A stretch of 64,000 bases of DNA from Escherichia phage EO1. How positions within the stretch are numbered: the stretch's first letter is position 1; each line of letters starts with the position of its first letter. Shown here one piece after another: positions 1-52,848 of the stretch. Under the pieces are notes generated by a model. That model was not told the DNA's origin, made no database searches, and worked only from the letters and a program-made list of their open reading frames with translations. The DNA is taken from sequence record OQ223305.1; one strand, written 5' to 3'. The position numbers were made by a program, and so were the translations under genes.

Positions 1-60
1 AGACTAAGAAAGCAGTGAGCGCTTGGTTCAGTGGAAAAAATTGTGAAAGAAGTTTCTTTT

Positions 61-125
61 AGTTGTTTACAAGACTGTTCCTCTGTGGTACTATACAACT
101 ATCAACTACGGAGGAACAGAAAATG
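61..125 (+). repeat. 65-bp promoter cassette, copy 1 (copy 2 at 52673-52737)
   Basis: 60 of 65 positions identical between the copies; all 5 differences lie in one 8-bp block of the -10 region. Confidence 0.8.
65..96 (+). promoter_or_regulatory. early promoter cassette (-35 GTTTAC, -10 region GGTACTATAC) flanked by inverted repeat
   Basis: GTTTAC at 65-70; -10 region 87-96; inverted repeat CTGTTCCTC (75-83) / GAGGAACAG (111-119) brackets it. Confidence 0.65.
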
Positions 126-650
126 AACGCTAAAGATATTTTCAACTTGGTAAACTACAATGATGGTAAATTTAAATCTGAAGCACAAAGTAAGTTCTTT
201 AATGACATCTCAATCGGAGGTGAAATCACTGTTGATGGAGGACAAATTTACAAATCCCGTTGGAATTGGATCGTTATTATTGATGAGATTGGTATTGTAG
301 AAATTTACAAAAATACGAATAAAAATCGTACATTACACTGGTCTCGTGATACTAACGAACAGTACAAAAAGGATAAAGCATCTAAGTTATCTCGTGTAAC
401 TCAAGAAGATATTGAGTTCATCAAGAAAGATATTTTGATGTATGATAACTTAATTGCTGAAGAGCAAGCTGTTATTGATAAATTTGATGAGATTAAAGCT
501 TCTCATAAAATTCCTGATTTTATGAAAGAATCAGTAAATGAACGATACACTCTCATTTCAGAGCGTATTGAAACTTACAAAAAGCAAAGAGCTGAACGCC
601 AGAATACTCTTCGGAAGTTTGAAGAACGGTTAAAGACGGTACTCGCATAA
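123..650 (+). CDS. hypothetical early protein, helical/coiled C-terminus (175 aa)
   Basis: ATG 123 lies 6 nt after GGAGG and just downstream of an early promoter; the six-frame ORF 63-650 N-terminal extension is read-through of the promoter. No recognisable domain. Confidence 0.55.
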   Translation: MNAKDIFNLVNYNDGKFKSEAQSKFFNDISIGGEITVDGGQIYKSRWNWIVIIDEIGIVEIYKNTNKNRTLHWSRDTNEQYKKDKASKLSRVTQEDIEFIKKDILMYDNLIAEEQAVIDKFDEIKASHKIPDFMKESVNERYTLISERIETYKKQRAERQNTLRKFEERLKTVLA

Positions 651-705
651 CCGCTTTATACCAAGGATGGTATAATGGTTCTAAGCCCTTTTAATTGAGA
701 TTATT

Positions 706-1113
706 ATGAAACAGCTGATAATTAAAAGATTGAATTTATTGATATGTTGTTTATGTATAGTAATTGCATATGGTTATTACGCAATTAATGATTATATGCA
801 TTATAAAGATTATGATGTTACTGTAGTTAATACCCTTACAGGAACTCAAGGAAAGGGGTCTAGTTTATCGTTTATTGCCGTATATGAACTCAAAGACGGT
901 TATAGATTTAGCGAATATATTTCCCCAGAGATGTATTCATCAATAGAAAAAGGCGATAATATTACTGTAAGTTTACGTCCTTTCGACGTAAAACAGACAC
1001 TGTTTGATAATATTGTTTGGTTCTTTGGAATGGTATTAGTTCAATCTGTGTGTGGTGCTTATATAGTCTGTTCCATCTTATTCTGTATATTTAGTAAAAT
1101 TGAAATTGAGTGA
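706..1113 (+). CDS. hypothetical small membrane protein (135 aa)
   Basis: ORF with hydrophobic N- and C-terminal segments (LLICCLCIVIAYGYY; FFGMVLVQSVCGAYIVCSILFCIF); preceded by a TATAAT-like -10 at 671-676. Confidence 0.5.
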   Translation: MKQLIIKRLNLLICCLCIVIAYGYYAINDYMHYKDYDVTVVNTLTGTQGKGSSLSFIAVYELKDGYRFSEYISPEMYSSIEKGDNITVSLRPFDVKQTLFDNIVWFFGMVLVQSVCGAYIVCSILFCIFSKIEIE

Positions 1114-1120
1114 GGAAAAT

Positions 1121-2008
1121 ATGTCAGTAGTAATTAATAATGTCAATGCAGTAATTAAATCTTTAGTTAATAAAAAATTGAATGAATGGACTGTACTTCG
1201 TCGTGGAGAGCCAGATAAATTTTTTCATAGATTTAACCCAACTTTGGATTTGAATGTTATTGACAGAGATGTTCATACAGAAATTTTAGATAAATTTAAA
1301 GTTGATATTGGATTTGGATTAGAAAAACATTTACAGCGAACAAACGGGTCTGGAATGGGTTTATCTAATCGCATCATGAAAGCCCTTAATAAAATTGGAG
1401 CATTGTCTCGTATTAACGCGAGTGAAATCCTTCGTAATTATAATAAAGGATATGACCTTTATGGCCGACTAATGCCGAAATTGTCATTCGATCAAATGAT
1501 TGCGGATTTGTGGGAAAATCAACGACGATTATTAGCATTAGGCGCTAGATTAGCTAAAGGTCTAGATAAACAAATGATTTTTAAAACTAATAATACAGAA
1601 GACCTTAAATGCTTTAAATTTAGTACTCGTGGAGATGACTATTACATCAGAGCTCACTCTACAGATTATGTCAATATGGGGCATCATCTCTGTTTAGCTT
1701 TTGAAGTTTTAAAAGAAGCCGGAACATTAGAATATTCATCTGGGGCAAAATGCCCGATTGGTTCAAATTGTATTTTAATTTATCGCCCGAATGAATCCAG
1801 TTCAACTAAATTGCCTACAAAACCTGTACCAGTTCGTAGTAACGAAAAACATTCTGAGCAAATTGATTATTTTAATAAGCAAATTGAAGAACTGAATATT
1901 TCTATTCAACAATATGACGATGAAATCTTTAGACTATCTGGATTGAGTAGTAAAGCTAAATCTGAGCGTGAAAAGTTAATTAAAATTGTTGATTTACTTA
2001 AATCTTAA
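1121..2008 (+). CDS. hypothetical protein, member 1 of coiled-coil-tailed ORF array (295 aa)
   Basis: ATG 1121 follows GAGGAA; C-terminal ~45 aa are heptad-like (IEELNISIQQYDDEIFRL...EREKLIKIVDLLKS). Confidence 0.6.
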   Translation: MSVVINNVNAVIKSLVNKKLNEWTVLRRGEPDKFFHRFNPTLDLNVIDRDVHTEILDKFKVDIGFGLEKHLQRTNGSGMGLSNRIMKALNKIGALSRINASEILRNYNKGYDLYGRLMPKLSFDQMIADLWENQRRLLALGARLAKGLDKQMIFKTNNTEDLKCFKFSTRGDDYYIRAHSTDYVNMGHHLCLAFEVLKEAGTLEYSSGAKCPIGSNCILIYRPNESSSTKLPTKPVPVRSNEKHSEQIDYFNKQIEELNISIQQYDDEIFRLSGLSSKAKSEREKLIKIVDLLKS

Positions 2009-2016
2009 GGAATACC

Positions 2017-3036
2017 ATGAAAACTCGTTCTCAAATTGAAGATATGGTTCGTAATGCCAGCTATACCCGTAATGTTATGACATTTTTGTGCCAAAATAAT
2101 TTAGACCCTGATAGAGTTAATAGTTCCATTCACTTTAAGTATATGAATAGCAGTGAATGGTTACGTCATTTTAGTAAAGCGGGATATATTACACAAATGA
2201 CTGCTCGTGAGCAGCTCACCGATTTCTGTAAAACTATTGATTATAAAAATCCTCTATTTGTTCAAGGCGTTGGTCAGAGTAAGGTTGATTTATCAACAGG
2301 ATTTTTTAATCCAAATCATTATCGTATTGAATGGAGATTTATTGCTCTATTCCGTAAACAATTAAAGCAAATTTTGTCTACTGCTAGTCGATTAAAAGGT
2401 TCTGACATTAACTTAAAGAACCTGAAATTCGATGGTTATACTCTTCAGATGGAAGTAAGACCATTAAAAGAAAATAATAGAACTGCACGAATTAGCTTTA
2501 AACCTAATACAAAAAATTCTCTTTCAATTTGTGAATGCCTTAAATCACAGTTGACAGAAGCATTTAAGTATATGGATGTTGTTGCCGCTGTTCATTCTAA
2601 GATTTTACCTCATTTTGAGCGAAATTGGGAACATACAACAACGTATGAACTTGATATGATCGTTTCATTTAAATACGATTTTTTGAGAAAGGATGAAGTC
2701 CCGCAAGAGAAAAAGCAGGAAGTACAAGATAACTTAAATTTATCTAATTGCTCATCAAACTATCCTAAATTTTGGATGTATAGCTCAGGTAATGAGGATG
2801 CATGGAAATTCAATAAAGTGAATTTTCTTCCTGTTGAAAATCCGAGTCTTAAACCTGTTGAAAAATGGCACGCGGATGCGATTGAGAAGTCTCTTAAGGC
2901 AGTAGATGATGAACTCGTTAAAGCGACCAATGAAGTGCTAGAAGCTGAAAAGATGCTAGAAAAAGCACAAGAAAAAGTCAAAAATCTTACGAAGCAACGT
3001 TCTAAACTGAACAGTGCACTAAATGCACTGAACTAG
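2017..3036 (+). CDS. hypothetical protein, member 2 of coiled-coil-tailed ORF array (339 aa)
   Basis: ATG 2017 follows TAAGGA; C-terminus LVKATNEVLEAEKMLEKAQEKVKNLTKQRSKLNSALNALN is strongly heptad/charged. Confidence 0.6.
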   Translation: MKTRSQIEDMVRNASYTRNVMTFLCQNNLDPDRVNSSIHFKYMNSSEWLRHFSKAGYITQMTAREQLTDFCKTIDYKNPLFVQGVGQSKVDLSTGFFNPNHYRIEWRFIALFRKQLKQILSTASRLKGSDINLKNLKFDGYTLQMEVRPLKENNRTARISFKPNTKNSLSICECLKSQLTEAFKYMDVVAAVHSKILPHFERNWEHTTTYELDMIVSFKYDFLRKDEVPQEKKQEVQDNLNLSNCSSNYPKFWMYSSGNEDAWKFNKVNFLPVENPSLKPVEKWHADAIEKSLKAVDDELVKATNEVLEAEKMLEKAQEKVKNLTKQRSKLNSALNALN

Positions 3037-3065
3037 TTTACTTTGCCACAAGGATGTGGTATAAT
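3036..3065 (+). promoter_or_regulatory. early promoter cassette (GTTTAC, CCACAAGGATGTGG hairpin, TATAAT)
   Basis: GTTTAC 3036-3041, inverted repeat CCACA/TGTGG 3046-3059, TATAAT 3060-3065; 18-bp spacer; drives ORF at 3094. Confidence 0.65.
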
Positions 3066-3093
3066 GTTCTTACTTTCTACTGAGGAGATTAAT

Positions 3094-4095
3094 ATGACTC
3101 GTAACGAATATATCAAATCATTCAATAGAGTTATTGATGATAAAGTTAAACCCATGTCTAGTCAGAACGCTGTTCTTTCTATTATCAATCAATGGCTCAG
3201 CAGTATTGATGCAAGTATTGTTTCTTCCAGTAAATTTATTCATGAAGTTCGTGAAATTTCTAGCCGTGTAGATAAAGATGATATTAAGATAATCTTTAAA
3301 GGGTCTCGTCTTCTTTCATATTTAGTTAATCGGGATATTCTTGGTAATTTTGGGAAAGAAATTAAACGAACCAAAGATGTAATAGGATACAATTGGTTCG
3401 GTGATGTTAATTCTTATCATCTTAATAATAAAGAAGACCCTGAGAATATTTTTACTCGTCGTTGGATTAGTAATTTCAGACTTTTTAAAGGACAAATTCT
3501 AAAATCAGCTTCTAAATTATGTTATGGCGATTATCGTCAAATTCATCCTTTGGCTTCTGATATGATTATCGTAAAAGAATATGAGCTTGATAAAAATAAA
3601 GTAGCTATTTTTGTGAATTACGAATTTTTTACACCAAACGCTAACCAAAAGAATATTAATAAATTTTTCTCAATTGCTAGCACTATAACTCATCAATTAG
3701 AGACGGCTTTGGATTGTATGGAAACTGTAAAAAGTATTCATACTTATCCTTTTAAGAATATGTGTGGTTGGGAAGGATACAAAATTGTAGTTAGTCTTCG
3801 TGAAGTGAAATGTGCTTATTCACCTACTGATAAAGAAATTTATCAACAAAAATGTGAGGAAATTGTGAATACTCCTAAAGAAGAAACTACCCTTGAGGAA
3901 CTAATGGAATGTCTTGATGATTCACCTGAACCGGTAGAAATTCGTCCAGAAGTTATTGCATTAGAAAAAGCTTATAAAGAAGTTCTAGAAATTTCTAATA
4001 AAGCGCAGAAAGAATACGAGCAGGCTAAAAAGATTTGGGAAGAATCTGTCAATCGCTTGGATCGTCTTGAACAAGCTTTACAGTTAATTAAGTAA
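3094..4095 (+). CDS. hypothetical protein, member 3 of coiled-coil-tailed ORF array (333 aa)
   Basis: ATG 3094 follows GAGGAG and its own promoter cassette (3036-3065); the six-frame start at 3043 is a TTG inside the promoter. C-terminal coiled coil (EKAYKEVLEISNKAQKEYEQAKKIWEESVNRLDRLEQALQLIK). Confidence 0.6.
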   Translation: MTRNEYIKSFNRVIDDKVKPMSSQNAVLSIINQWLSSIDASIVSSSKFIHEVREISSRVDKDDIKIIFKGSRLLSYLVNRDILGNFGKEIKRTKDVIGYNWFGDVNSYHLNNKEDPENIFTRRWISNFRLFKGQILKSASKLCYGDYRQIHPLASDMIIVKEYELDKNKVAIFVNYEFFTPNANQKNINKFFSIASTITHQLETALDCMETVKSIHTYPFKNMCGWEGYKIVVSLREVKCAYSPTDKEIYQQKCEEIVNTPKEETTLEELMECLDDSPEPVEIRPEVIALEKAYKEVLEISNKAQKEYEQAKKIWEESVNRLDRLEQALQLIK

Positions 4096-4147
4096 TTTAA
4101 AGCCAAGGATGGCTCGGAGCATAAATCATTAACCAAGTGAGAAGAAC

Positions 4148-5074
4148 ATGAAAACTCGTAAACATTATATTGATTATTTTGACAGTCTTATTACTAAACA
4201 TCGTAATTATCAGATAGGACACAGAGCAGTAATCAATAATATTCTTCGTGATTTTTTAGACTATATTGGATGGGAAAACCATATTTGTAAAGATACACAA
4301 AATGCGTATTCACATTCTCTTGGTTCTTTGCTCGAGTGGTTCAAACGTTCCCGATTACTATCTTCTGTGATAGCTGTTAATAATGTTAAAAAATTTATGT
4401 ATCCAAGCTACATTAAGACTAATGTATCAAATGCTAGTGTTGTTACATTTAATATTATTAACGACGTGAAAAGAACTTATTTAGAAGAATGGTTTTCTAA
4501 AGATAGTAAAGAAAAATTTGCCAGTGAATTTTCACACGAATTCAATAATAACGTGAATATGCTTTTTAAGCATTCTCGTAGACTGTTTTGTCATGGTGAT
4601 AATCGTACTATTAATGTGAATGTAAAAGACTGGGTTACGGCTAAATTCACTCCATCGTCCCAGAATGGACAATTTGATTTGTCAATTATCATTTGTGCTC
4701 CGCATGAGATATATAAAAATCTTCCGTATATGAAACCACGCGAAGCTAATAAACACAATGAAACTATTAGTTCTTTGTCTTATAATTTGCATGAGTTATT
4801 ATCTAATATGGATGTAGTTAAATCATTTGATGATAATACGAATTATGGTCTTTCACTGTTTGAAACTAAATTTGTTATTAAGTTAAAGGACCCTAGTGAA
4901 TTTAAATCTGCACCAAAACCTAATCATGGGAATGATACTATGAAAGAAGAACGTGAATATCTCAATGCCCGTTTGATTGAAGTTGAAAAACAAATTGAAG
5001 AGCATACTAAAGTTCTTAAGGCTTTAACCGCCAAAGCAAATGGTTTACGTAATGCTATTGAGGTATTGAAATGA
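4148..5074 (+). CDS. hypothetical protein, member 4 of coiled-coil-tailed ORF array (308 aa)
   Basis: ATG 4148; C-terminus [42 protein letters not shown]; stop overlaps next ATG (ATGA). Confidence 0.6.
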   Translation: MKTRKHYIDYFDSLITKHRNYQIGHRAVINNILRDFLDYIGWENHICKDTQNAYSHSLGSLLEWFKRSRLLSSVIAVNNVKKFMYPSYIKTNVSNASVVTFNIINDVKRTYLEEWFSKDSKEKFASEFSHEFNNNVNMLFKHSRRLFCHGDNRTINVNVKDWVTAKFTPSSQNGQFDLSIIICAPHEIYKNLPYMKPREANKHNETISSLSYNLHELLSNMDVVKSFDDNTNYGLSLFETKFVIKLKDPSEFKSAPKPNHGNDTMKEEREYLNARLIEVEKQIEEHTKVLKALTAKANGLRNAIEVLK

Positions 5075-5460
5075 AAAAGCGTTTATTAGAAGACATTGCA
5101 GCTTCAAGTAATTCCAGTCTAATTAAAATTATTATGGCTGGTGAAGAAGACGATTTGGAAATGCGTGGAAAGATTCACGGCTGCGACGATTTAGATTTTA
5201 AACCTCCAGCATGGGATGCTATTATGGCTATGGTTGAACGGCGTGAAAGAGCTTCTAAAAACGTTCCTAATTGCCCTGAATGCGGTACTGAACAAGTTCA
5301 ATTGATTAACTGGCGTAAACCAGAGCTTGAATATAAATGCCGTCAATGTAAACATAAATTCAGTAAGCATGCTCCGGAAATGGTTAAATTGCCTGACTCT
5401 ACTGAGTTCTTTAAAGAACTTGTGAGTGTTCAACCAATGCCTAATAATATTTTGGATTAA
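5071..5460 (+). CDS. hypothetical zinc-ribbon protein (129 aa)
   Basis: Paired Cys motifs CPECG...CRQC typical of a zinc ribbon; translationally coupled to the upstream ORF. Confidence 0.5.
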
Positions 5461-5462
5461 AA

Positions 5463-5705
5463 ATGACCAAGCGTAAAGAATATATGGAGGCTGCTGAAAA
5501 GGCAGTCCGTGAATTAGCAATAGCTTATTATAATGAACATGGTAAATTTCCTGATAGATACAGCGTGCTTAAATCTGCTTTAACTCGTTCATATAAAAAT
5601 ATGCTATCAGAAGTAAGTGATATTATATACAAACATAAAGAACAAACGGGCCAAAGTCTTGATTACGACGAGACTTTTAAACAAGTACTAGGAATTAAGG
5701 AATAA
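5463..5705 (+). CDS. hypothetical protein (80 aa)
   Basis: ORF immediately upstream of nrdC, typical T4-like tight packing. Confidence 0.45.
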
Positions 5706-5706
5706 T

Positions 5707-5970
5707 ATGTTTAAAGTATATGGTTATGATAGCAACATCCATAAATGTGTGTATTGTGATAATGCAAAACGTCTTTTGACCGTGAAGAAACAGCCGTTTG
5801 AATTTATCAACATTATGCCGGAAAAAGGTGTTTTTGATGATGAGAAAATCGCTGAGCTTCTGACTAAACTAGGTCGTGATACTCAAATCGGCTTGACAAT
5901 GCCCCAGGTATTTGCTCCTGATGGAAGTCATATTGGTGGATTTGACCAACTGCGAGAATATTTTAAATGA
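5707..5970 (+). CDS. nrdC: phage thioredoxin/glutaredoxin NrdC (87 aa)
   Basis: N-terminus MFKVYGYDSNIHKCVYCDNAKRLL with CVYC redox motif matches T4 NrdC as recalled; 87 aa as in T4. Confidence 0.85.
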   Translation: MFKVYGYDSNIHKCVYCDNAKRLLTVKKQPFEFINIMPEKGVFDDEKIAELLTKLGRDTQIGLTMPQVFAPDGSHIGGFDQLREYFK

Positions 5971-6182
5971 TGCTCGAAGGAACTGACTATATTCATGATT
6001 ACCGCGGAAGCGCGGTATATGTAGGTGATGAAGTTGCAGTTTATTATGGGTATGGAACTTTGATGACAGCCAAGGTTATTCAAATTAAAAATAATCGTGC
6101 TAAACTCGAAGTTTATTATTCTAATGGTGAAAAGTCTATTTCTAAGTGGAAATACGGCGATTGTATGGTTAAATTGGGGTAA
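5967..6182 (+). CDS. hypothetical protein (71 aa)
   Basis: ATG overlaps nrdC stop (ATGA); ORF only. Confidence 0.4.
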   Translation: MMLEGTDYIHDYRGSAVYVGDEVAVYYGYGTLMTAKVIQIKNNRAKLEVYYSNGEKSISKWKYGDCMVKLG

Positions 6183-6184
6183 AT

Positions 6185-6355
6185 ATGATTTACGATATTA
6201 GTGTATCAAGAACTCCGTCAATGGTTACTATTCCAGCCGAAGAACTAGATCGTCTTCAGAAAATTGAAGAACTTCTTTGGGAAATTGAATGTGCCCTGCC
6301 ATCAGGACTAGAATCCTGGATTGACGATGAAGAACTTAATAAATTGCGAAATTAA
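6185..6355 (+). CDS. hypothetical protein (56 aa)
   Basis: Short ORF, acidic C-terminus; below the six-frame track length cut-off. Confidence 0.3.
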   Translation: MIYDISVSRTPSMVTIPAEELDRLQKIEELLWEIECALPSGLESWIDDEELNKLRN

Positions 6356-6365
6356 TTGGTGAAAA

Positions 6366-6686
6366 ATGACTATTGAAAATAAATTAGATGTTGATGCAGT
6401 TCTGAGCGAAATCATTGAAGACCATGATGCATTTTCGGAAAACTATGATTTCGATTTTTCCGATTATCTTAAACCTGTCGAAATAGAAGACTGGGTGCAA
6501 GATGGTAAATGCCAATATCGTCAGTGTGTTTACTTTAGTCCAAAACATAATGTACATGTAGCGGTAAATGAATCTCGGTCAGGTTCTTATCATTCTGACT
6601 GGTATTATGCAGTTCCGACTGTTGAACTAGTCGAGCCCCGTGAACGTGTAGTAACTCAGATAGTACGAGAATGGATTACGCTATAA
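6366..6686 (+). CDS. hypothetical protein (106 aa)
   Basis: ORF with start 4 nt after GGTGAAAA; no recognisable motif. Confidence 0.45.
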   Translation: MTIENKLDVDAVLSEIIEDHDAFSENYDFDFSDYLKPVEIEDWVQDGKCQYRQCVYFSPKHNVHVAVNESRSGSYHSDWYYAVPTVELVEPRERVVTQIVREWITL

Positions 6687-11798: not shown

Positions 11799-11999
11799 AT
11801 GAATCCTGAATCTAAATTATCGCAGCGAATTGCTGAAGCTCGTCGTCAGTTCTTTGAAAATATGATAGCACAAGGTATTGATGACGAAGTTTTTCTGAAC
11901 TGGTTTTGGAATCACAAATACTCAAAATGCTCAGGAGCAATATTAATATCAGCCGCAATGATGTACGAAGGCTGGAAGGGTGCCAAAAAGTTTAGCTAA
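11799..11999 (+). CDS. hypothetical protein (66 aa)
   Basis: ORF followed directly by the terminator at 12000-12017. Confidence 0.4.
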   Translation: MNPESKLSQRIAEARRQFFENMIAQGIDDEVFLNWFWNHKYSKCSGAILISAAMMYEGWKGAKKFS

Positions 12000-12017
12000 G
12001 GGCTTCGGCCCTTTTTT
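12000..12017 (+). terminator. rho-independent terminator (GGGCTTCGGCCC + T6)
   Basis: UUCG-tetraloop hairpin 12000-12011 followed by TTTTTT. Confidence 0.8.
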
Positions 12018-14435: not shown

Positions 14436-15638
14436 ATGAAAGTATGTATTTTTATGGCTCGAGGTCTTGAAGGTTGTGGTGTAACAAAATTCTCACTCGA
14501 GCAACGTGATTGGTTTATTAAAAATGGTCATAAAGTGACTTTGGTTTATGCTAAAGATAAATCATTTACTCGTAACTGTGCACATGATTATAAATCATTT
14601 TCAATTCCGGTTTTATTGGCAAAAGAATACGATAAAACACTTAAGCTGGTAAATGATTGTGATATTCTAATTATCAATTCAGTTCCTGCTACTTCAGTTG
14701 AAGAAGACACTATTAATAACTATAAAAAAATTATTGATAACATTAAACCTTCTGTTCGTGTTGTAGTTTATCAACATGACCATTCTTCTCTTTCTTTGCG
14801 CCGAAATTTGGGATTAGAAGAAACTGTTCGTCGAGCTGATGTTATTTTTAGCCATTCTGATAATGGTGATTTTAATAAAGTTCTGATGAAAGAGTGGTAT
14901 CCAGAAACTGTTTCTCTGTTTGATGATATTGAAGAAGCACCGACCGTATATAACTTTCAGCCTCCTATGGATATTGCGAAGGTTCGGTCAACTTACTGGA
15001 AAGATGTTTCTGAAATTAACATGAATATCAACCGTTGGATTGGTCGTACGACTACATGGAAAGGTTTTTATCAGATGTTTGATTTTCACGAAAAACATCT
15101 TAAACCTGCAGGACTAAGTACTATTATGGAAGGTCTGGAACGTTCTCCAGCATTCATTCCTATTAAAGAAAAAGGAATTCCATATGAGTATTATCGTCTT
15201 CATCAAGTAGACCAAATTAAAATTGCTCCTAATTTGCCAACGCAAATTCTCGACCGTTATGTAAATAGCGAAATGCTTGAGCGCATGAGTAAATCCGGAT
15301 TTGGTTATCAGCTGAGTAAATTAGATAAAAAATATCTACAGCGTTCTTTAGAATACACTCATCTCGAGCTTGGTGCATGCGGAACAATTCCAGTATTTTG
15401 GAAATCTACTGGCGAAAATTTAAAATTCCGTGTTGATAATACTCCTTTGACCTCGCATGATAGCGGTATCATTTGGTTTGATGAAAATGATATGGAATCA
15501 ACATTTGAACGTATTAAAGAACTGTCATCTGACCGAGCTCTTTATGACCGTGAACGTGAAAAAGCTTATGAATTTTTGTATCAGCATCAAGATTCAAGCT
15601 TCTGCTTTAAAGAACAGTTTGACATTATTACAAAATAA
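14436..15638 (+). CDS. a-gt: DNA alpha-glucosyltransferase (hmC glucosylation), 400 aa
   Basis: 400 aa; sequence closely resembles T4 alpha-gt as recalled (…CIFMARGLEGCGVTKFSLEQRDWFIKNGH…); flanked by terminators. Confidence 0.8.
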   Translation: MKVCIFMARGLEGCGVTKFSLEQRDWFIKNGHKVTLVYAKDKSFTRNCAHDYKSFSIPVLLAKEYDKTLKLVNDCDILIINSVPATSVEEDTINNYKKIIDNIKPSVRVVVYQHDHSSLSLRRNLGLEETVRRADVIFSHSDNGDFNKVLMKEWYPETVSLFDDIEEAPTVYNFQPPMDIAKVRSTYWKDVSEINMNINRWIGRTTTWKGFYQMFDFHEKHLKPAGLSTIMEGLERSPAFIPIKEKGIPYEYYRLHQVDQIKIAPNLPTQILDRYVNSEMLERMSKSGFGYQLSKLDKKYLQRSLEYTHLELGACGTIPVFWKSTGENLKFRVDNTPLTSHDSGIIWFDENDMESTFERIKELSSDRALYDREREKAYEFLYQHQDSSFCFKEQFDIITK

Positions 15639-15639
15639 A

Positions 15640-15656
15640 GGGCTTCGGCCCTTTAG
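15640..15656 (+). terminator. rho-independent terminator after alpha-gt
   Basis: GGGCTTCGGCCC 15640-15651 followed by TTT. Confidence 0.7.
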
Positions 15657-15677
15657 CTTTATACGGAGTTTGATATA

Positions 15678-20259: not shown

Positions 20260-20946
20260 ATGAAACTGTCTAAAGATACTACTGCTCTGCTTAAAAATTT
20301 CGCTACTATTAACTCCGGTATTATGCTTAAATCCGGTCAATTTATTATGACTCGCGCAGTTAATGGTACAACTTACGCAGAAGCAAATATTTCTGACACT
20401 ATTGATTTTGATGTAGCAATTTACGATTTGAACGGTTTTCTCGGTATTCTGTCCCTAGTTAATGACGATGCAGAAATTTCCCAGTCAGAAGATGGAAATA
20501 TTAAAATTGCTGATGCCCGTTCAACAATTTTTTGGCCAGCAGCCGATCCGAGTACAGTAGTTGCTCCTAATAAACCAATTCCATTCCCGGTAGCATCTGT
20601 TGTTACTGAAATTAAAGCTGAAGACCTTCAACAACTGTTGCGTGTATCTCGTGGTCTGCAGATTGATACAATTGCTATCACGGTAAAAGAAGGTAAAATC
20701 GTAATTAACGGTTTTAATAAAGTGGAAGATTCTGCTTTGACCCGTGTTAAATATTCTTTGACTCTTGGTGATTATGATGGTGAAAATACATTTAATTTCA
20801 TTATCAATATGGCAAATATGAAAATGCAACCAGGAAATTATAAACTTCTGCTCTGGGCAAAAGGTAAACAAGGTGCTGCTAAATTTGAAGGTGAACATGC
20901 GAATTATGTAGTAGCTCTTGAAGCTGATTCTACCCACGATTTTTAA
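20260..20946 (+). CDS. 45: sliding clamp gp45 (228 aa)
   Basis: 228 aa; MKLSKDTTALLKNFATINSGIMLKSGQFIMTRAVNGTTYAE matches T4 gp45 as recalled. Confidence 0.9.
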   Translation: MKLSKDTTALLKNFATINSGIMLKSGQFIMTRAVNGTTYAEANISDTIDFDVAIYDLNGFLGILSLVNDDAEISQSEDGNIKIADARSTIFWPAADPSTVVAPNKPIPFPVASVVTEIKAEDLQQLLRVSRGLQIDTIAITVKEGKIVINGFNKVEDSALTRVKYSLTLGDYDGENTFNFIINMANMKMQPGNYKLLLWAKGKQGAAKFEGEHANYVVALEADSTHDF

Positions 20947-20950
20947 TAGA

Positions 20951-20965
20951 GGGCTTCGGCCCTTT
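20951..20965 (+). terminator. rho-independent terminator after gene 45
   Basis: GGGCTTCGGCCC 20951-20962 followed by TTT. Confidence 0.7.
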
Positions 20966-20997
20966 ATAATTTACACTAAAACTTGAATGAGGAAATT

Positions 20998-22523: not shown

Positions 22524-22892
22524 ATGATTGAAATTACTCTTAAAAAACCTGAAGATTTTCTGAAAGTAAAAGAAACTTTGACTCGTATGGGAATTGCTAA
22601 TAATAAAGATAAAGTTCTGTATCAGTCCTGTCATATTCTTCAGAAAAAAGGACTATACTATATCGTTCATTTTAAAGAAATGCTTCGTATGGATGGTCGC
22701 CAGGTTGAAATGACAGAAGAAGATGAAGTTCGTCGTGATTCAATTGCATGGCTGTTAGAAGATTGGGAACTGATTGAAATCGTTCCTGGTCAAAGAACTT
22801 TTATGAAAGATTTAACTAATAACTTCCGCGTTATTTCTTTTAAACAAAAACATGAATGGAAACTCGTTCCTAAATATACGATTGGTAATTAA
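22524..22892 (+). CDS. regA: translational repressor RegA (122 aa)
   Basis: 122 aa; MIEITLKKPEDFLKVKETLTRMGIANNKDKVLYQSCHILQKKGLYYIVHFKEMLRMDGRQ matches T4 RegA as recalled. Confidence 0.85.
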   Translation: MIEITLKKPEDFLKVKETLTRMGIANNKDKVLYQSCHILQKKGLYYIVHFKEMLRMDGRQVEMTEEDEVRRDSIAWLLEDWELIEIVPGQRTFMKDLTNNFRVISFKQKHEWKLVPKYTIGN

Positions 22893-22896
22893 GCAA

Positions 22897-22916
22897 GGGG
22901 CTTCGGCCCCTTATTT
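22897..22916 (+). terminator. rho-independent terminator after regA
   Basis: GGGGCTTCGGCCCC 22897-22910 followed by TTATTT. Confidence 0.7.
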
Positions 22917-25701: not shown

Positions 25702-25783
25702 CATACAAGTAATATAAATCTATACTTATGAAAAACAGATGATTCTGGACATTTAGAATTCCCTAAAAAATTTTCACAAAACT

Positions 25784-25815
25784 GTTTACAAGAATGTTCT
25801 TCCATGGTACTATAC
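25784..25815 (+). promoter_or_regulatory. early promoter cassette with conserved 32-bp core
   Basis: GTTTAC 25784-25789; core GGTACTATACAACTATCAACTACTGATACGGA at 25806-25837. Confidence 0.65.
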
Positions 25816-25850
25816 AACTATCAACTACTGATACGGATTTGGATAATAAA

Positions 25851-44390: not shown

Positions 44391-44424
44391 AGTTTAAATT
44401 TTTTTTTTTCATAAAACTATATAC

Positions 44425-44467
44425 ATCAGTAGTTGATTATGGTACTATATCAATATCAACTACTGAT
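44425..44467 (+). promoter_or_regulatory. promoter-like stem-loop element: 13-bp perfect inverted repeat bracketing a -10 region
   Basis: ATCAGTAGTTGAT (44425-44437) and ATCAACTACTGAT (44455-44467) flank TATGGTACTATAT; variant of the 32-bp core; no GTTTAC -35. Confidence 0.5.
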
Positions 44468-44491
44468 ACAGAAAATAACTTGGAGAATAAA

Positions 44492-45975: not shown

Positions 45976-46236
45976 ATGAAATATATTAATCGTTCTATCG
46001 CAGCATTAGTATTAGCAGTGTCTTTAGCAGGATGTACTGATGCTGATAATGCAACCAAAATTTTGTCATCAAGCGGTTTTACTAATATTGAAATCACTGG
46101 ATACAATTGGTTCGGTTGCTCTGAAAATGATTTCCAACATACTGGATTTCGTGCTATTGGACCTACTGGGCAGAAAGTAGAAGGAACAGTATGTTCTGGG
46201 TTGTTCTTTAAGGATTCAACTATTCGTTTTAAATAA
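45976..46236 (+). CDS. hypothetical lipoprotein (86 aa)
   Basis: Signal peptide with lipobox LAGC (MKYINRSIAALVLAVSLAGCTD); followed by a terminator. Confidence 0.45.
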   Translation: MKYINRSIAALVLAVSLAGCTDADNATKILSSSGFTNIEITGYNWFGCSENDFQHTGFRAIGPTGQKVEGTVCSGLFFKDSTIRFK

Positions 46237-46237
46237 A

Positions 46238-46254
46238 AGGCCTTCGGGCCTTTA
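46238..46254 (+). terminator. rho-independent terminator upstream of gene 39
   Basis: AGGCCTTCGGGCCT 46238-46251 followed by TT. Confidence 0.6.
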
Positions 46255-46305
46255 GCTTTATGATTACCGGAGTATAATATTCCCGAAACCAAACGAGGAT
46301 AAGTG

Positions 46306-48123
46306 ATGATTAAGAATGAAATTAAAATTCTGAGCGATATTGAACATATCAAAAAGCGTAGTGGCATGTACATTGGCTCTTCTGCTAATGAAATGCATGA
46401 GCGCTTTCTGTTTGGTAAATGGGAAAGTGTTCAGTATGTACCTGGTCTTGTTAAGCTTATTGATGAAATTATCGATAACTCAGTCGATGAAGGTATTCGT
46501 ACTAAGTTTAAATTCGCGAATAAAATTAATGTTACCATTAAAAATAATCAGGTAACAGTTGAAGATAACGGTCGTGGTATTCCACAAGCGATGGTTAAAA
46601 CACCTACCGGTGAAGAAATTCCTGGTCCAGTTGCTGCTTGGACTATTCCAAAAGCGGGTGGTAACTTTGGTGATGATAAAGAACGTGTCACCGGTGGTAT
46701 GAATGGTGTTGGTTCTAGTTTAACTAACATTTTTTCTGTGATGTTTGTCGGTGAAACTGGCGATGGTCAAAATAATATTGTAGTTCGTTGTTCAAATGGT
46801 ATGGAAAATAAATCCTGGGAAACTATTCCTGGAAAATGGAAAGGAACTCGTGTTACTTTCATTCCTGATTTTATGTCATTTGAAACTAATGAGCTGTCCC
46901 AGGTTTATCTTGACATTACACTGGATCGTCTCCAGACACTTGCTGTCGTTTATCCTGATATTCAATTTACCTTTAATGGTAAAAAGGTTCAGGGCAATTT
47001 TAAGAAATATGCACGACAGTATGATGAACATGCTATCGTTCAAGAACAAGAAAATTGTTCTATTGCGGTTGGTCGTTCACCGGATGGATTTCGTCAATTA
47101 ACTTACGTGAATAACATTCACACTAAGAATGGTGGTCATCACATTGATTGTGTTATGGATGATATTTGTGAAGACCTTATTCCACAAATCAAACGTAAAT
47201 TCAAAATTGATGTAACTAAAGCACGCGTTAAAGAATGTTTGACTATCGTTATGTTTGTTCGTGATATGAAAAACATGCGATTTGATTCTCAAACTAAAGA
47301 GCGTTTGACTTCTCCATTTGGCGAAATTCGTAGTCATATTCAACTTGATGCTAAAAAGATTTCACGCGCTATTCTAAATAATGAAGCAATTTTAATGCCG
47401 ATTATTGAAGCTGCGTTGGCTCGTAAATTGGCGGCAGAAAAAGCAGCAGAAACTAAAGCAGCTAAAAAGGCTTCTAAAGCTAAGGTTCATAAACATATCA
47501 AAGCGAATCTCTGTGGTAAAGATGCTGACACTACTCTTTTCTTGACTGAGGGTGATTCTGCTATCGGATATCTTATTGATGTTCGTGATAAAGAACTTCA
47601 TGGTGGTTATCCATTGCGTGGTAAAGTTCTCAACAGTTGGGGTATGTCATATGCTGATATGCTTAAAAACAAAGAACTATTTGATATTTGCGCAATCACT
47701 GGATTAGTTCTTGGTGAAAAAGCTGAAAACTTGAATTATCATAATATTGCTATTATGACCGATGCTGACCATGATGGTTTAGGAAGCATTTATCCTTCTC
47801 TGCTCGGATTTTTTAGTAATTGGCCAGAATTGTTTGAGCAAGGACGAATTCGCTTTGTCAAAACTCCTGTAATCATCGCTCAGGTCGGTAAAAAACAAGA
47901 ATGGTTTTATACAGTCGCTGAATATGAGAGTGCTAAAGATGCTCTACCTAAACATAGCATCCGTTATATTAAAGGACTTGGCTCTTTGGAAAAATCTGAA
48001 TATCGTGAGATGATTCAAAATCCAGTATATGATGTTGTTAAACTTCCTGAGAACTGGAAAGAGCTTTTTGAAATGCTCATGGGAGATAATGCTGACCTTC
48101 GTAAAGAATGGATGAGCCAGTAG
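46306..48123 (+). CDS. 39: DNA topoisomerase II large (ATPase) subunit gp39, uninterrupted 605-aa form
   Basis: GHKL ATPase motifs (IDNSVDEG, GRGIP) and TOPRIM region (LTEGDSA) in one ORF; 605 aa, i.e. not split into 39 + 60. Confidence 0.9.
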   Translation: MIKNEIKILSDIEHIKKRSGMYIGSSANEMHERFLFGKWESVQYVPGLVKLIDEIIDNSVDEGIRTKFKFANKINVTIKNNQVTVEDNGRGIPQAMVKTPTGEEIPGPVAAWTIPKAGGNFGDDKERVTGGMNGVGSSLTNIFSVMFVGETGDGQNNIVVRCSNGMENKSWETIPGKWKGTRVTFIPDFMSFETNELSQVYLDITLDRLQTLAVVYPDIQFTFNGKKVQGNFKKYARQYDEHAIVQEQENCSIAVGRSPDGFRQLTYVNNIHTKNGGHHIDCVMDDICEDLIPQIKRKFKIDVTKARVKECLTIVMFVRDMKNMRFDSQTKERLTSPFGEIRSHIQLDAKKISRAILNNEAILMPIIEAALARKLAAEKAAETKAAKKASKAKVHKHIKANLCGKDADTTLFLTEGDSAIGYLIDVRDKELHGGYPLRGKVLNSWGMSYADMLKNKELFDICAITGLVLGEKAENLNYHNIAIMTDADHDGLGSIYPSLLGFFSNWPELFEQGRIRFVKTPVIIAQVGKKQEWFYTVAEYESAKDALPKHSIRYIKGLGSLEKSEYREMIQNPVYDVVKLPENWKELFEMLMGDNADLRKEWMSQ

Positions 48124-48152
48124 TTTACTTTACCACAAGGATGTGGTATAAT
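48123..48152 (+). promoter_or_regulatory. early promoter cassette (second copy of the 3036-3065 type)
   Basis: GTTTAC 48123-48128, CCACAAGGATGTGG 48133-48146, TATAAT 48147-48152; differs from the 3034-3065 copy by one base. Confidence 0.65.
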
Positions 48153-48177
48153 TAATTGGGCAAATGAGGATATTGAA

Positions 48178-48381
48178 ATGAAATCATATAGAGTAAATTT
48201 AGAACTTTTTGATAAAGCAGTTCATCGAGAATATAGAATCATTCAACGCTTTTTCGATATGGGAGAAGCCGAAGAATTTAAAAACCGCTTTAAAGATATT
48301 AGAGATAAAATTCAATCCGACACCGCAACTAAAGATGAACTACTAGAAGTTGCTGAAGTTATTAAGCGTAATATGAATTAA
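48178..48381 (+). CDS. hypothetical protein (67 aa), rIIA.1 position
   Basis: ORF between gene 39 and rIIA behind a promoter cassette. Confidence 0.4.
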
Positions 48382-50580: not shown

Positions 50581-51519
50581 ATGTACAATATTAAATGCCT
50601 GACCAAAAACGAACAAGCTGAAATTGTTAAACTGTATTCAAGCGGTAATTATACTCAGCAGGAATTGGCTGATTGGCAAGGTGTATCAGTTGATACAATC
50701 CGTCGTGTTTTGAAAAATGCTGAAGAAGCTAAACGCTCTAAAGTTACTATTAGCGGTGATATTACAGTTAAAGTTAATAGCGATGCAGTTATTGCTCCAG
50801 TTACTAAATCTGACATTATTTGGAATGCATCTAAAAAATTCATTTCGATTACTGTCGATGGTGTAACTTATAATGCAACACCTAATACTCATTCAAACTT
50901 TCAGGAAATTCTCAATCTGCTTGTAGCGGATAAGCTGGAAGAAGCGGCACAAAAAATTAATGTTCGTCGCGCTGTTGAAAAATATATTTCCGGCGATGTT
51001 CGAATTGAAGGTGGAAGCTTATTCTATCAAAATATTGAATTGCGGTCTGGTTTGGTTGATCGTATTCTTGATTCGATGGAAAAAGGCGAAAACTTTGAAT
51101 TTTATTTTCCGTTCTTGGAAAATCTGCTGGAAAACCCAAGCCAGAAAGCGGTATCTCGACTTTTTGATTTCTTGGTAGCAAACGATATTGAAATCACCGA
51201 AGATGGTTACTTCTATGCTTGGAAAGTAGTTCGTGACAACTACTTTGACTGTCACTCAAACACCTTTGATAACAGTCCGGGTAAAGTAGTTAAAATGCCG
51301 CGTACTCGTGTGAATGACGATGATACACAAACTTGTTCTCGTGGTCTGCATGTGTGTTCTAAATCTTATATTCGTCATTTTGGCAGTTCAACCAGCCGAG
51401 TTGTAAAAGTTAAAGTTCATCCTCGCGATGTAGTATCAATTCCGATTGATTACAACGACGCTAAAATGCGTACCTGCCAATACGAAGTAGTTGAAGACGT
51501 TACTGAACAATTTAAATAA
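50581..51519 (+). CDS. rIIB: rIIB protein (312 aa)
   Basis: 312 aa as T4 rIIB; follows rIIA. Confidence 0.85.
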   Translation: MYNIKCLTKNEQAEIVKLYSSGNYTQQELADWQGVSVDTIRRVLKNAEEAKRSKVTISGDITVKVNSDAVIAPVTKSDIIWNASKKFISITVDGVTYNATPNTHSNFQEILNLLVADKLEEAAQKINVRRAVEKYISGDVRIEGGSLFYQNIELRSGLVDRILDSMEKGENFEFYFPFLENLLENPSQKAVSRLFDFLVANDIEITEDGYFYAWKVVRDNYFDCHSNTFDNSPGKVVKMPRTRVNDDDTQTCSRGLHVCSKSYIRHFGSSTSRVVKVKVHPRDVVSIPIDYNDAKMRTCQYEVVEDVTEQFK

Positions 51520-51534
51520 GGGCTTCGGCCCTTA
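51520..51534 (+). terminator. terminator-like hairpin after rIIB
   Basis: GGGCTTCGGCCC 51520-51531; weak U-tract. Confidence 0.5.
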
Positions 51535-51547
51535 ACTAAGGAAAATT

Positions 51548-51742
51548 ATGTTAGGTTATCAAGCACGAGTAAAAGAAGAATACGATCAATTAATGCTCAA
51601 AATTAATGCACTGAGTAAATTTTTAGAAAGCGCAAAGTTTCTAACGGTTAGTGCAGTTGAGCAAGAACTGTTACTTTCGCAGTTTATCTCAATGAAATCT
51701 TATGCTGAGTGTCTAGAGAAAAGAATTGCGCAATTCAAATAA
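51548..51742 (+). CDS. hypothetical protein (64 aa)
   Basis: Small ORF flanked by two GGGCTTCGGCCC terminator hairpins. Confidence 0.4.
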   Translation: MLGYQARVKEEYDQLMLKINALSKFLESAKFLTVSAVEQELLLSQFISMKSYAECLEKRIAQFK

Positions 51743-51747
51743 AATAA

Positions 51748-51763
51748 GGGCTTCGGCCCTTTT
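51748..51763 (+). terminator. rho-independent terminator
   Basis: GGGCTTCGGCCC 51748-51759 followed by TTTT. Confidence 0.7.
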
Positions 51764-51824
51764 GTTTTAAGAGAAATTATGATTTATATGAATATCAGTG
51801 ATTCCGACATAAAGGAAAGTTTAA

Positions 51825-52397: not shown

Positions 52398-52451
52398 GTT
52401 TACATACCACAAGGACCGTGGTACTATACAACTATCAACTACTGATACAGA
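52398..52451 (+). promoter_or_regulatory. chimeric early promoter cassette
   Basis: GTTTAC 52398-52403, CCACAAGGACCGTGG 52407-52421 (second cassette type) fused to the 32-bp core at 52420-52451. Confidence 0.6.
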
Positions 52452-52570
52452 TTTGGAGAATAAAATGAAAATCGCTGAGATTGAACTATGAGTTCATTAT
52501 GGTGGTGTTTTGTTTGGTTAATTAGTATTCCAGTAATTTGTTTAACATTTACTTTTGTGATGAGGTTATT

Positions 52571-52672: not shown

Positions 52673-52737
52673 AGTTGTTTACAAGACTGTTCCTCTGTGG
52701 TATTATTACCCTATCAACTACGGAGGAACAGAAAATG
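52673..52737 (+). repeat. 65-bp promoter cassette, copy 2
   Basis: AGTTGTTTACAAGACTGTTCCTCTGTGGTA[TTATTACC]CTATCAACTACGGAGGAACAGAAAATG, versus CTATACAA in copy 1. Confidence 0.8.
52677..52731 (+). promoter_or_regulatory. early promoter cassette, duplicate of the 61-125 element
   Basis: GTTTAC 52677-52682; inverted repeat CTGTTCCTC (52687-52695) / GAGGAACAG (52723-52731); -10 block GGTATTATTACC. Confidence 0.65.
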
Positions 52738-52848
52738 AAAAAGATTGTTAAAGCTATATGGAATGTAGTTATAATACTAGTAGTTTTGAGTATATTCCCA
52801 ATCGTTTTAATGATTGATGTATTAAACGTTTACTTTGGATTTATGTGA
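52735..52848 (+). CDS. hypothetical hydrophobic peptide (37 aa)
   Basis: ATG 52735 after GGAGG, behind a duplicated promoter cassette; hydrophobic. Confidence 0.35.
   Translation: MKKIVKAIWNVVIILVVLSIFPIVLMIDVLNVYFGFM

Follow-up and report, generated by a model that had tools for sequence, protein, structure and literature searches.

A predicted GGA-loop hairpin in the spacer of early promoters of Escherichia phage EO1 and related T4-like phages

Two nearly identical promoter sequences lie in the early region of Escherichia phage EO1, and their shared spacer is an inverted repeat that would fold in RNA into a hairpin with a GGA loop. Both were studied in a stretch of 64,000 nucleotides of this phage (OQ223305.1; hereafter the window), which represents a Tequatrovirus (T4-like) early region with the + strand as the early-transcribed strand. 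A megablast search with positions 2000-6000 returned 640 phage records, nearly all of them Tequatrovirus (T4, T2, T6, RB51 and others) at 90-98% identity. According to annotation transferred from RB51 and T4, the left end of the window reads nrdC.8, nrdC.7, nrdC.6, nrdC.5, nrdC.4, nrdC.3, nrdC.2, nrdC.1 and nrdC, and the region from 46 to 54 kb holds gene 39, rIIA.1, rIIA, rIIB, denB and the ndd region, in that order. Gene 39 (46303-48123) is a single open reading frame (ORF) of 606 aa, without the division into 39 and 60, accompanied by mobA and 60.1, that is specific to T4.

The first copy of the promoter is the exact 32-mer TAGTTTACTTTGCCACAAGGATGTGGTATAAT at 3034-3065, between nrdC.5 and nrdC.4; like all features given below, it lies on the + strand. 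It is composed of the TAG stop codon of nrdC.5 (3034-3036), a -35 box TTTACT (3037-3042), a 17-nt spacer (3043-3059) ending in the extended -10 TGTGG (3055-3059), and a -10 box TATAAT (3060-3065). The predicted spacer hairpin, UGCCACA-AGGA-UGUGGUA, occupies 3044-3061 with its loop at 3051-3054, and can also be drawn in a hexaloop form, C[AAGGAU]G. The nrdC.4 start follows at 3082-3096 with a Shine-Dalgarno (SD) sequence GAGGAG (GGA at 3084-3086) and the ATG at 3094-3096, so placed that 32 nt separate the loop GGA from the SD GGA. The second copy, at 48121-48152 between gene 39 and rIIA.1, likewise begins with a TAG stop codon, that of gene 39 (48121-48123), and has its -35 box at 48124-48129, its -10 box TATAAT at 48147-48152 and its hairpin, TACCACA-AGGA-TGTGGTA, at 48131-48148. 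The rIIA.1 start (48166-48180) has the SD GAGGAT (GGA at 48168-48170) and an ATG at 48178, with 29 nt from loop GGA to SD GGA.

The original prediction, made from the letters of the window, had described a 32-mer repeated with one mismatch about 45 kb apart. This was borne out: the copies are identical at 31/32 positions and differ by G to A at position 12. Its gene context was also correct, with copy 1 inside the nrdC.6-nrdC.3 array of paralogues and copy 2 between the unsplit gene 39 and rIIA.1, as was its view of all copies as one family of promoter cassettes. The search pattern that it offered, CCACAAGGNNNGTGG, matches only a third copy described below; in the main copies CCACAAGG and GTGG are separated by two bases and not by three. 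No match to the 32-mer occurred in 100 dinucleotide shuffles, and CCACAAGGA occurs three times against 0.26 expected. A chance origin of the repeats is ruled out by the shuffles and the expected counts. The likeness of the two copies begins at the TAG stop of the upstream gene and ends at the last T of TATAAT, and the flanks are unrelated.

Each main copy is almost certainly a T4-type sigma-70 early promoter, judging from its boxes and their spacing. In a generic promoter scan TTTACT, 17 nt and TATAAT with TG scored 10/12 at both copies, which is the top score of each scanned region, tied with three other sites per region; in the scan of 1-6500, copy 1 is the only one with TG among the three top + strand sites (four top sites in all). 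The extended -10 TGn is present in both, where TGTGG stands immediately before TATAAT, and both match the PST/T4 early consensus TTTACW-N17-TAYWAT (PMC4122927). Copy 2 is already annotated as a "predicted early promoter" in the fPS-2 record, and the promoters themselves are known and ordinary. A listing across the window gave about 15 GTTTAC-N17-19-TAnnAT promoters for the + strand against one for the - strand, and most have an A/T-rich upstream (UP) element (aaaattttcacaaaa). Such an element is missing at the main copies because coding sequence extends to the -35 box (the upstream 22 nt are coding; gcactgaacta / gatgagccagta). The middle of the spacer varies among the other early promoters of the window, and the near-identity of the two main-copy spacers is therefore unusual. 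These features suggest, as part of an overall explanation that we hold only tentatively, that the repeats may be a distinct, conserved and compact subclass of early promoters whose -35 box overlaps or closely follows the upstream stop codon.

Several other identities were considered for the repeat and rejected. MotA boxes have the consensus (a/t)(a/t)TGCTT(t/c)a centred at -30; as a MotA-dependent middle promoter, TTTGCCACA agrees at 7/9 positions but is shifted, and TTTACC in copy 2 removes the TGC. Each Tequatrovirus copy departs from a DnaA box (TTWTNCACA) at one position, and the resemblance is gone in relatives where the four bases after TTTAC (N4) are AACA. An N-terminal extension of nrdC.4 could begin at an in-frame ATG at 3064, 9 nt after AAGGA, in copy 1 only, and this is unconserved. 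An intrinsic terminator was rejected as well, the hairpins having no U-tract (tails UAAUGUUCUU and UAAUUAAUUG) and a terminator scan flagging copy 1 only, weakly. Hairpins with UUCG tetraloops of the GGGCTTCGGCCC type and T-runs (terminators) are found in the window at 11986-12013, 15632-15662, 20937-20973, 22884-22911, 46231-46261, 51506-51533 and 51734-51770.

Three further sites in the window carry a related hairpin. The third copy, after denB at 52398-52452, is a mosaic, as had been proposed: GTTTAC (52398-52403) opens the block GTTTAC-ATACCACAAGGACCGTGG-TACTAT at 52398-52427, which joins this spacer to a leader (TACTATACAACTATCAACTACTGATACAGA) common to another promoter family. Its promoter reads TTTACA-17-TACTAT from 52399, with the -10 box at 52422-52427, and its hairpin, UACCAC-AAGGACC-GUGGUA, lies at 52405-52423. 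This copy is kept in RB14 and T2 (in T2 as CCACAAGGACTGTGG). The site after the nrdC.8 stop (654-677) forms an 8-bp hairpin, TTATACCA-AGGA-TGGTATAA, at 656-675 with its loop at 664-667; TGG-TATAAT falls within the 3' arm (-10 at 672-677), and there is no usable -35 box at 17 nt. Its sequence is identical in T4, RB51, fPS-2, KFS-EC3 and N2. The site after the nrdC.4 stop (4096-4119) has the hairpin AGCCA-AGGA-TGGCT at 4101-4114 with its loop at 4106-4109 and no adjoining -10 box, and its stem differs from that of the 654 site by a compensatory A-T to G-C change. The shared CCAAGGATGG at 661-670 and 4103-4112 (two matches against 0.04 expected) had been taken for degenerate remnants of the cassette. 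Their kinship is supported by the covariance model below, but they are not degenerate, since both are intact hairpins with different stems. In the stretch after the second of these hairpins (4115-4125), T4 and RB51 read GGAGTATAAATC (TATAAAT, late-promoter-like) and the window reads CATAAAT.

What the five sites have in common is the hairpin. The spacer of the promoters is an inverted repeat, ACCACA AGGA TGTGGT, and the family consists of hairpins of 5-8 bp with the loop A-N-GGA-N and with C, A, GGA and G invariant. The GGA-loop hairpin is the predicted minimum-free-energy structure at all five sites, and that of copy 1 is so whether folded by itself or within its context (-8.2 kcal/mol, z -3.1). 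The + strand of the window has 145 perfect hairpins with a loop of 4 nt; UUCG is the most frequent of these loops with 10 cases, and AGGA, with 4, comes next. The AGGA loops belong to the two main copies and the two supposed remnants, and each of these four hairpins is intergenic, immediately follows a stop codon and has AGGA on the sense strand. A covariance model found five sites in the 64 kb and no others, namely the four training sites (27.1 bits for the 654 site and 21.2 bits for the 4096 site) and the untrained third copy (19.7 bits, E 0.015). Over 287 kb of related loci it gave no further unselected sites, and no Rfam family matched in the window.

Both main copies are stable features of the genus Tequatrovirus and are present in most of the approximately 640 records. 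The 32-mer matches 741 phage records, usually at two places in each, including T4, T2 and T6. Furthermore, 137 Klebsiella phage records match at 26/26 positions (GTTTACTTTGCCACAAGGATGTGGTA), and Serratia, Enterobacter and other phages match too. For a comparison across genera we combined these loci with 27 IMG/VR stretches containing TTTAC-N4-CCACAAGGATGTGG. In Jiaodavirus-type Klebsiella phages this promoter lies between motB and cef, between gp43 and a lipoprotein-like ORF / phrog_18344, and at a third site; in Winklervirus CHI14 it lies between gp41 and spackle and between gp43 and a lipoprotein-like ORF. The gp41, gp43 and motB sites of these two genera are non-orthologous to the copies in the window, which at motB-cef, after gp41 and after gp43 has early promoters with other spacers. 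The motB-cef promoter of the window (44403-44473) has TATATAC in place of GTTTAC, and its spacer CATCAGTAGTTGATTATGG is an inverted repeat of the leader motif CAACTACTGAT; the same junction in Jiaodavirus has a GGA-hairpin promoter instead of this TATATAC type. Copy 2 was not found outside Tequatrovirus in Gaprivervirus RZ or Mosigvirus ST0, where the interval from gene 39 to rIIA holds different sequences and additional ORFs.

An orthologous comparison is possible at the junction from alt to alt.-3, where the hairpin promoter is present in Dhakavirus, Mosigvirus, Jiaodavirus, Winklervirus and Marfavirus. Six sequences were aligned there, from three named genera (Dhakavirus JS98, Marfavirus and Winklervirus) and unclassified contigs. 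The promoter block is invariant in 24/27 columns, with AGTTTACAA-ACCACA-GGA-GTGGTA common to all. Far more variation than in this block is seen in the -10 hexamer (TACTAT or TATAGT), in the leader and in the final codons of Alt. Variation in the core is limited to the two N of A-N-GGA-N. When the loop, the 5' arm or the 3' arm was left free in scans, T4-like contigs gave only CCACA[A/C/T]GGA[T/C/A]GTGG, with a single exception considered below.

The stems themselves change in a paired manner. Jiaodavirus 311F has the stem AUCAC/GUGAU where JS98 has ACCAC/GUGGU, and Mosigvirus O157tp3 retains ACAUGGAUGU (GCACA/UGUGU) in a position moved by 2 nt relative to the -10 box. Across 14 distinct sequences 97% of cells are paired, and three of the five pairs vary on both sides (C-G, U-A, A-U, G-C and G-U). 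The pairing score was reached by none of 500 shuffles, and slid controls were 19-57% paired. On these alignments conservation of the predicted promoter-hairpin, with compensatory changes, extends over at least six genera of T4-like phages, and the hairpin is very probably under purifying selection. We also think it possible, with the same reserve as for the subclass itself, that this hairpin, and not the promoter boxes or homology as such, keeps the copies alike. That selection falls on the hairpin and not on the whole 32-mer, and that the hairpin is conserved across genera at non-orthologous sites, are points absent from the original prediction. A covarying GGA-loop hairpin embedded in a promoter and conserved across genera appears not to have been described before.

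The cassettes had also been linked to gene gain and loss. Insertions or deletions do adjoin three of the five sites, but the crossovers lie outside the 32-mer and the hairpin, and the main copies are fixed in most Tequatrovirus records. The nrdC.6-nrdC.3 array (1121-5074 in the window) is complete in 461/506 records and holds four, three or two genes among phages, by recombination between the first codons of the paralogues (MKTR... / MTR...). KFS-EC3, which has no nrdC.4, shows the junction ATGACTCGTAA|ACATTAT with the crossover in ACTCGTAA, common to the nrdC.4 and nrdC.3 starts; the promoter is undamaged and now stands upstream of nrdC.3 and drives it. In fPS-2 and N2, which lack nrdC.5, the promoter and nrdC.4, the crossover is in ATGAAAACTCGT. 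After the third copy, T2 has ORF266c (68 aa) and RB14 has ORF266c followed by ORF269c, neither of which is in the window; colinearity with the window after denB is limited to ECP52 and about three further records. An eight-codon relic ORF, MKIAEIEL* (52465-52491), which overlaps the next ATG, is left by the loss of ORF266c (and of ORF269c of RB14), with a crossover in the AAAATG found at gene starts. All three events thus have their crossovers in gene-start repeats of 6-12 nt, 30-70 nt downstream of the promoter; one falls within the SD-ATG end of the third copy's cassette, which makes that one event borderline. The gene losses near the sites arise by recombination between short repeats at gene starts (translation-initiation microhomology) and not at the hairpin core.

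These events bear on whether the copies are alike as PeSL-type mobile regulatory cassettes, that is, as recombination modules that move ORFs and for which the spacer only provides homology. Within-genome copies do keep genus-specific details in N4 and the -10 box, TTTG/A with TATAAT in Tequatrovirus and TTTG/A with TACTAT in Jiaodavirus; mosaics exist, in the third copy and in Jiaodavirus leaders; and indels occur within 30-70 nt of three sites. As with PeSL cassettes, there are several similar copies in hyperplastic regions (nrdC, 39-rIIA and denB-ndd) with an SD and an ATG at the 3' end. However, none of the three mapped crossovers is in the 32-mer, all being in start-codon-region repeats, and identity stops sharply at TAG and TATAAT, the flanks offering no homology that could drive exchange. 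The stem-loop here, which lacks a U-tract, lies within the spacer, whereas that of PeSLs is upstream of the -35 box; neither an upstream terminator or attenuator stem-loop nor crossovers inside cassettes were found. Moreover, neutral homology can account neither for compensatory changes in a stem nor for a spacer that, across genera at an orthologous site, surpasses the -10 box in conservation. We therefore regard a mobile cassette as an improbable explanation of the likeness. The PeSL shuffling model is qualified by these results, in that in the three mapped events genes were lost between translation-initiation regions and a promoter was left to drive the next gene.

Selection on the inverted repeat could instead act on DNA, with ACCACA-N4-TGTGGT as the operator of a dimeric protein or as a spacer that optimises RNA polymerase binding where there is no UP element. 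Centre to centre, 10 bp separate the half-sites, which lie between the -35 and -10 boxes, where repressors classically sit; the 3' arm coincides with the extended -10, and the main-copy promoters do lack UP elements. In addition, T4 early promoters have extra consensus regions that are unexplained, as is the mechanism of early shut-off (PMC2988021, Hinton). Against a function of this kind, the register of the hairpin to the -10 box is unfixed: it is shifted by 2 nt in O157tp3, lies beside a -35-like box at 4096 and includes the -10 box at 654. The arms range from 4 to 8 bp and the half-site spacing changes, yet the centre is always A-GGA on the sense strand, and G-U pairs stand in for Watson-Crick pairs in three sequences. 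A general phage promoter design was rejected on an unbiased sample of TTTAC-N13-TGTGGTATAAT promoters in IMG/VR, where none of 141 distinct spacers has CCACA at the arm position, which argues against a general polymerase requirement. In a separate observation, unrelated AT-rich contigs of IMG/VR that are not T4-like (n=9) have TTTACA-N3-CCACA-N4-TGTGGTATAAT promoters in which the loop is AATC, ATAA, GATA or another sequence other than GGA, so that a spacer holding the complement of the extended -10 is found elsewhere too. Overall, a DNA-level function seems unlikely, though slightly less so than a mobile cassette.

The variable register to the -10 box, the variable arm length, the fixed sense orientation of an asymmetric loop and the G-U pairs point to RNA rather than duplex DNA, and with read-through and start sites assumed as predicted, the hairpin probably acts at the RNA level. 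The spacer would then have a double duty, its 3' end serving as the extended -10 (TGTGG) on DNA and the whole folding as a hairpin in read-through transcripts. The hairpin would be confined to read-through RNA, because transcripts from the promoter itself start downstream of it, and it could serve as a protein-binding site on read-through mRNA only. A similar arrangement is suggested by the other promoter family (61-127 and 52673-52739, also 25780-25846; 93% identical over 67 nt). Here the spacer and extended -10 (CUGUUCCUCUGUGGU) pair with the leader and SD (ACUACGGAGGAACAG) in a stem of 15 bp at -23.2 kcal/mol (z ~-5), so that the SD would be sequestered in read-through transcripts only. This stem is possible only in read-through RNA, and the same RNA-level logic would therefore apply as for the GGA hairpin. 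Direct pairing of the GGA-hairpin spacer with its downstream leader or SD was rejected, since it amounts to only 4 nt (AAGG/CCUU).

A candidate reader of the hairpin is the host protein CsrA, one dimer of which could bridge the hairpin and the SD GGA and so block downstream translation on read-through RNA. The consensus for CsrA from in vitro ligand selection (SELEX) is RUACARGGAUGU, in which ACA and GGA are invariant, GGA is in a hairpin loop and AC/GU close a hexaloop (PMC7652899); that of RsmE is (A/U)CANGGANG(U/A) (PMC6849547). The core ACAAGGAUGU (ACA-N-GGA-N-GU; 3048-3057 in copy 1) is identical to the invariant part of the CsrA consensus and also matches the RsmE consensus. CCACAAGGAUGU agrees with the CsrA consensus at 10/12 positions, including every invariant one, and exact ACARGGAUGU occurs in the window only at 3048 and 48135. 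In the core, phage genera differ at exactly the two N of ANGGAN. A CsrA dimer bridges two sites 10-63 nt apart (PMC7652899), and the distance from loop GGA to SD GGA is 28-47 nt in 11/13 contexts (28-36 nt in 10/11). Counted from start to start, the SD GGA precedes the ATG by 10 nt in 33/37 sequences and 11/13 contexts. CsrB is stabilised during T4 infection according to one paper, and our literature search found no paper linking CsrA to T4-type transcripts.

From the match in motif and spacing, CsrA itself is a plausible but doubtful reader. Taken as a whole, a spacer-hairpin RNA element read by CsrA is the best explanation that we have, and a tentative one. We would go further only as speculation: T4-like phages of enterobacteria may recruit CsrA via spacer hairpins to silence downstream immediate-early genes (rIIA.1, nrdC.4, sp, cef, alt.-3 and others) on later read-through RNA, which we think somewhat unlikely. 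Equally speculative is the joint proposal that transcripts from the promoters themselves escape, so that the hairpin would be a temporal insulator dependent on a host factor. Abundant early RNA bearing the hairpin could also titrate CsrA.

It is important to realize that several observations weigh against selection on the hairpin and its reading by CsrA. Part of the 3' arm is the extended -10 (TRTGn), and its conservation is therefore partly driven by the promoter, and the covariation signal owes much to the 654 and 4096 sites, which were aligned by anchoring on GGA. For hairpins with ANGGAN loops as a whole, the + strand shows only a modest excess (11, where shuffles give 6.4 +/- 2.4). The exception from the free-arm scans is a T4-like promoter that has AGGATGTGG without the 5' arm, and T4's own alt.-3 promoter (TAGTTTACAAGTCCCTCGTGTTGTGTTATAGT; T4 122414-123514) has no hairpin, which it lost or never had. 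The CsrA match was found a posteriori, after comparison with many known sites. The SD is without GGA in 2/13 contexts and GGA is common in T4 SDs anyway, which makes the spacing test weak. Finally, most SELEX ligands have no more than four contiguous pairs and very stable stems may disfavour CsrA (PMC7652899); the stems here have 5-8 bp.

The hairpin could also act in RNA through another reader, either as an SD-like AAGGA that holds the 30S subunit or S1 after the stop codon for re-initiation, or as a cleavage site for RegB. It begins 7-10 nt past the stop codon at the two main copies, and by our own reading AAGGAUGUG is complementary at 8/9 positions to the 3' end of 16S rRNA. GGA and ACA are S1 SELEX motifs, and RegB can cut a small RNA without S1 if GGA is looped and the next base is paired (PMC1702504; PMC3014915). 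However, the anti-SD idea leaves the invariant ACA and the closing C-G pair unexplained. Of 30 intergenic T4 GGAU sites tested only 55.2 and motB.2 were cut, neither of them among those here (Durand 2006, PMC1702504). The A-rich 3' consensus GGAGRAYARAA is absent, the sequence here being GGAUGUGGUAU, and relatives carry GGAC and GGAA, which are poorly cut. A RegB site was rejected on the published cleavage tests and the missing A-rich RAYARAA downstream of GGAG/U, and RNA readers other than CsrA are together the least probable of the alternatives that we considered.

If the hairpin is indeed read by CsrA or another factor, promoter spacers in the textbook system of T4 early promoters carry a second, post-transcriptional code. 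If that factor is CsrA, a host global regulator would be part of the T4 programme. A reader of either kind would also account for the repeated presence of the same 14-26 nt at junctions that are unrelated, in Escherichia, Klebsiella, Serratia and Yersinia phages.

The elements can be compared with four known systems. Like the T4 early promoters (Pe) listed by Wilkens and Ruger and by Miller et al. 2003, reviewed in PMC2988021, they have a GTTTAC-type -35 box, 17-nt spacing, TGn and a TATAAT-like -10 box, and on the early strand they immediately precede early genes; T4 itself has both main copies. In contrast to those promoters, the copies here have no UP element, and the spacer, elsewhere variable, is their best-conserved part. 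With PeSL cassettes (Arbiol 2010, PMC2839356; Comeau 2014, PMC4122927) they share the composite of early promoter, stem-loop, SD and ATG, the adjacent hyperplastic regions with variable ORFs, and the mosaics. The PeSL stem-loop, however, is upstream of the promoter and is a terminator (G-rich/C-rich, or AGNA...TCNT in PST), whereas here it is within the spacer and has a conserved GGA loop, and crossovers here are at gene starts and not between cassettes.

The T4 genes e, soc, 49 and I-TevI, described as having a promoter inside a hairpin (PMC3014915), are similar in that the 5' part of the RNA structure lies upstream of the start site and only transcripts from farther upstream are affected. 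Their 5' arm pairs directly with the SD, as happens in the other promoter family of the window, whereas the GGA hairpin is self-contained and would need a trans-acting reader. Similarly, the CsrA/RsmA hairpins of the glgC leader, the CsrB repeats and the SELEX ligands share with it a short hairpin whose loop holds GGA, the core ACA-N-GGA-N-GU and a second GGA in the SD within bridging distance, and the hosts are all Enterobacterales that carry CsrA. In contrast to these, the element predicted here is encoded by a phage, embedded in a promoter and would be present in read-through RNA only, and its stems are longer than those of most SELEX ligands.

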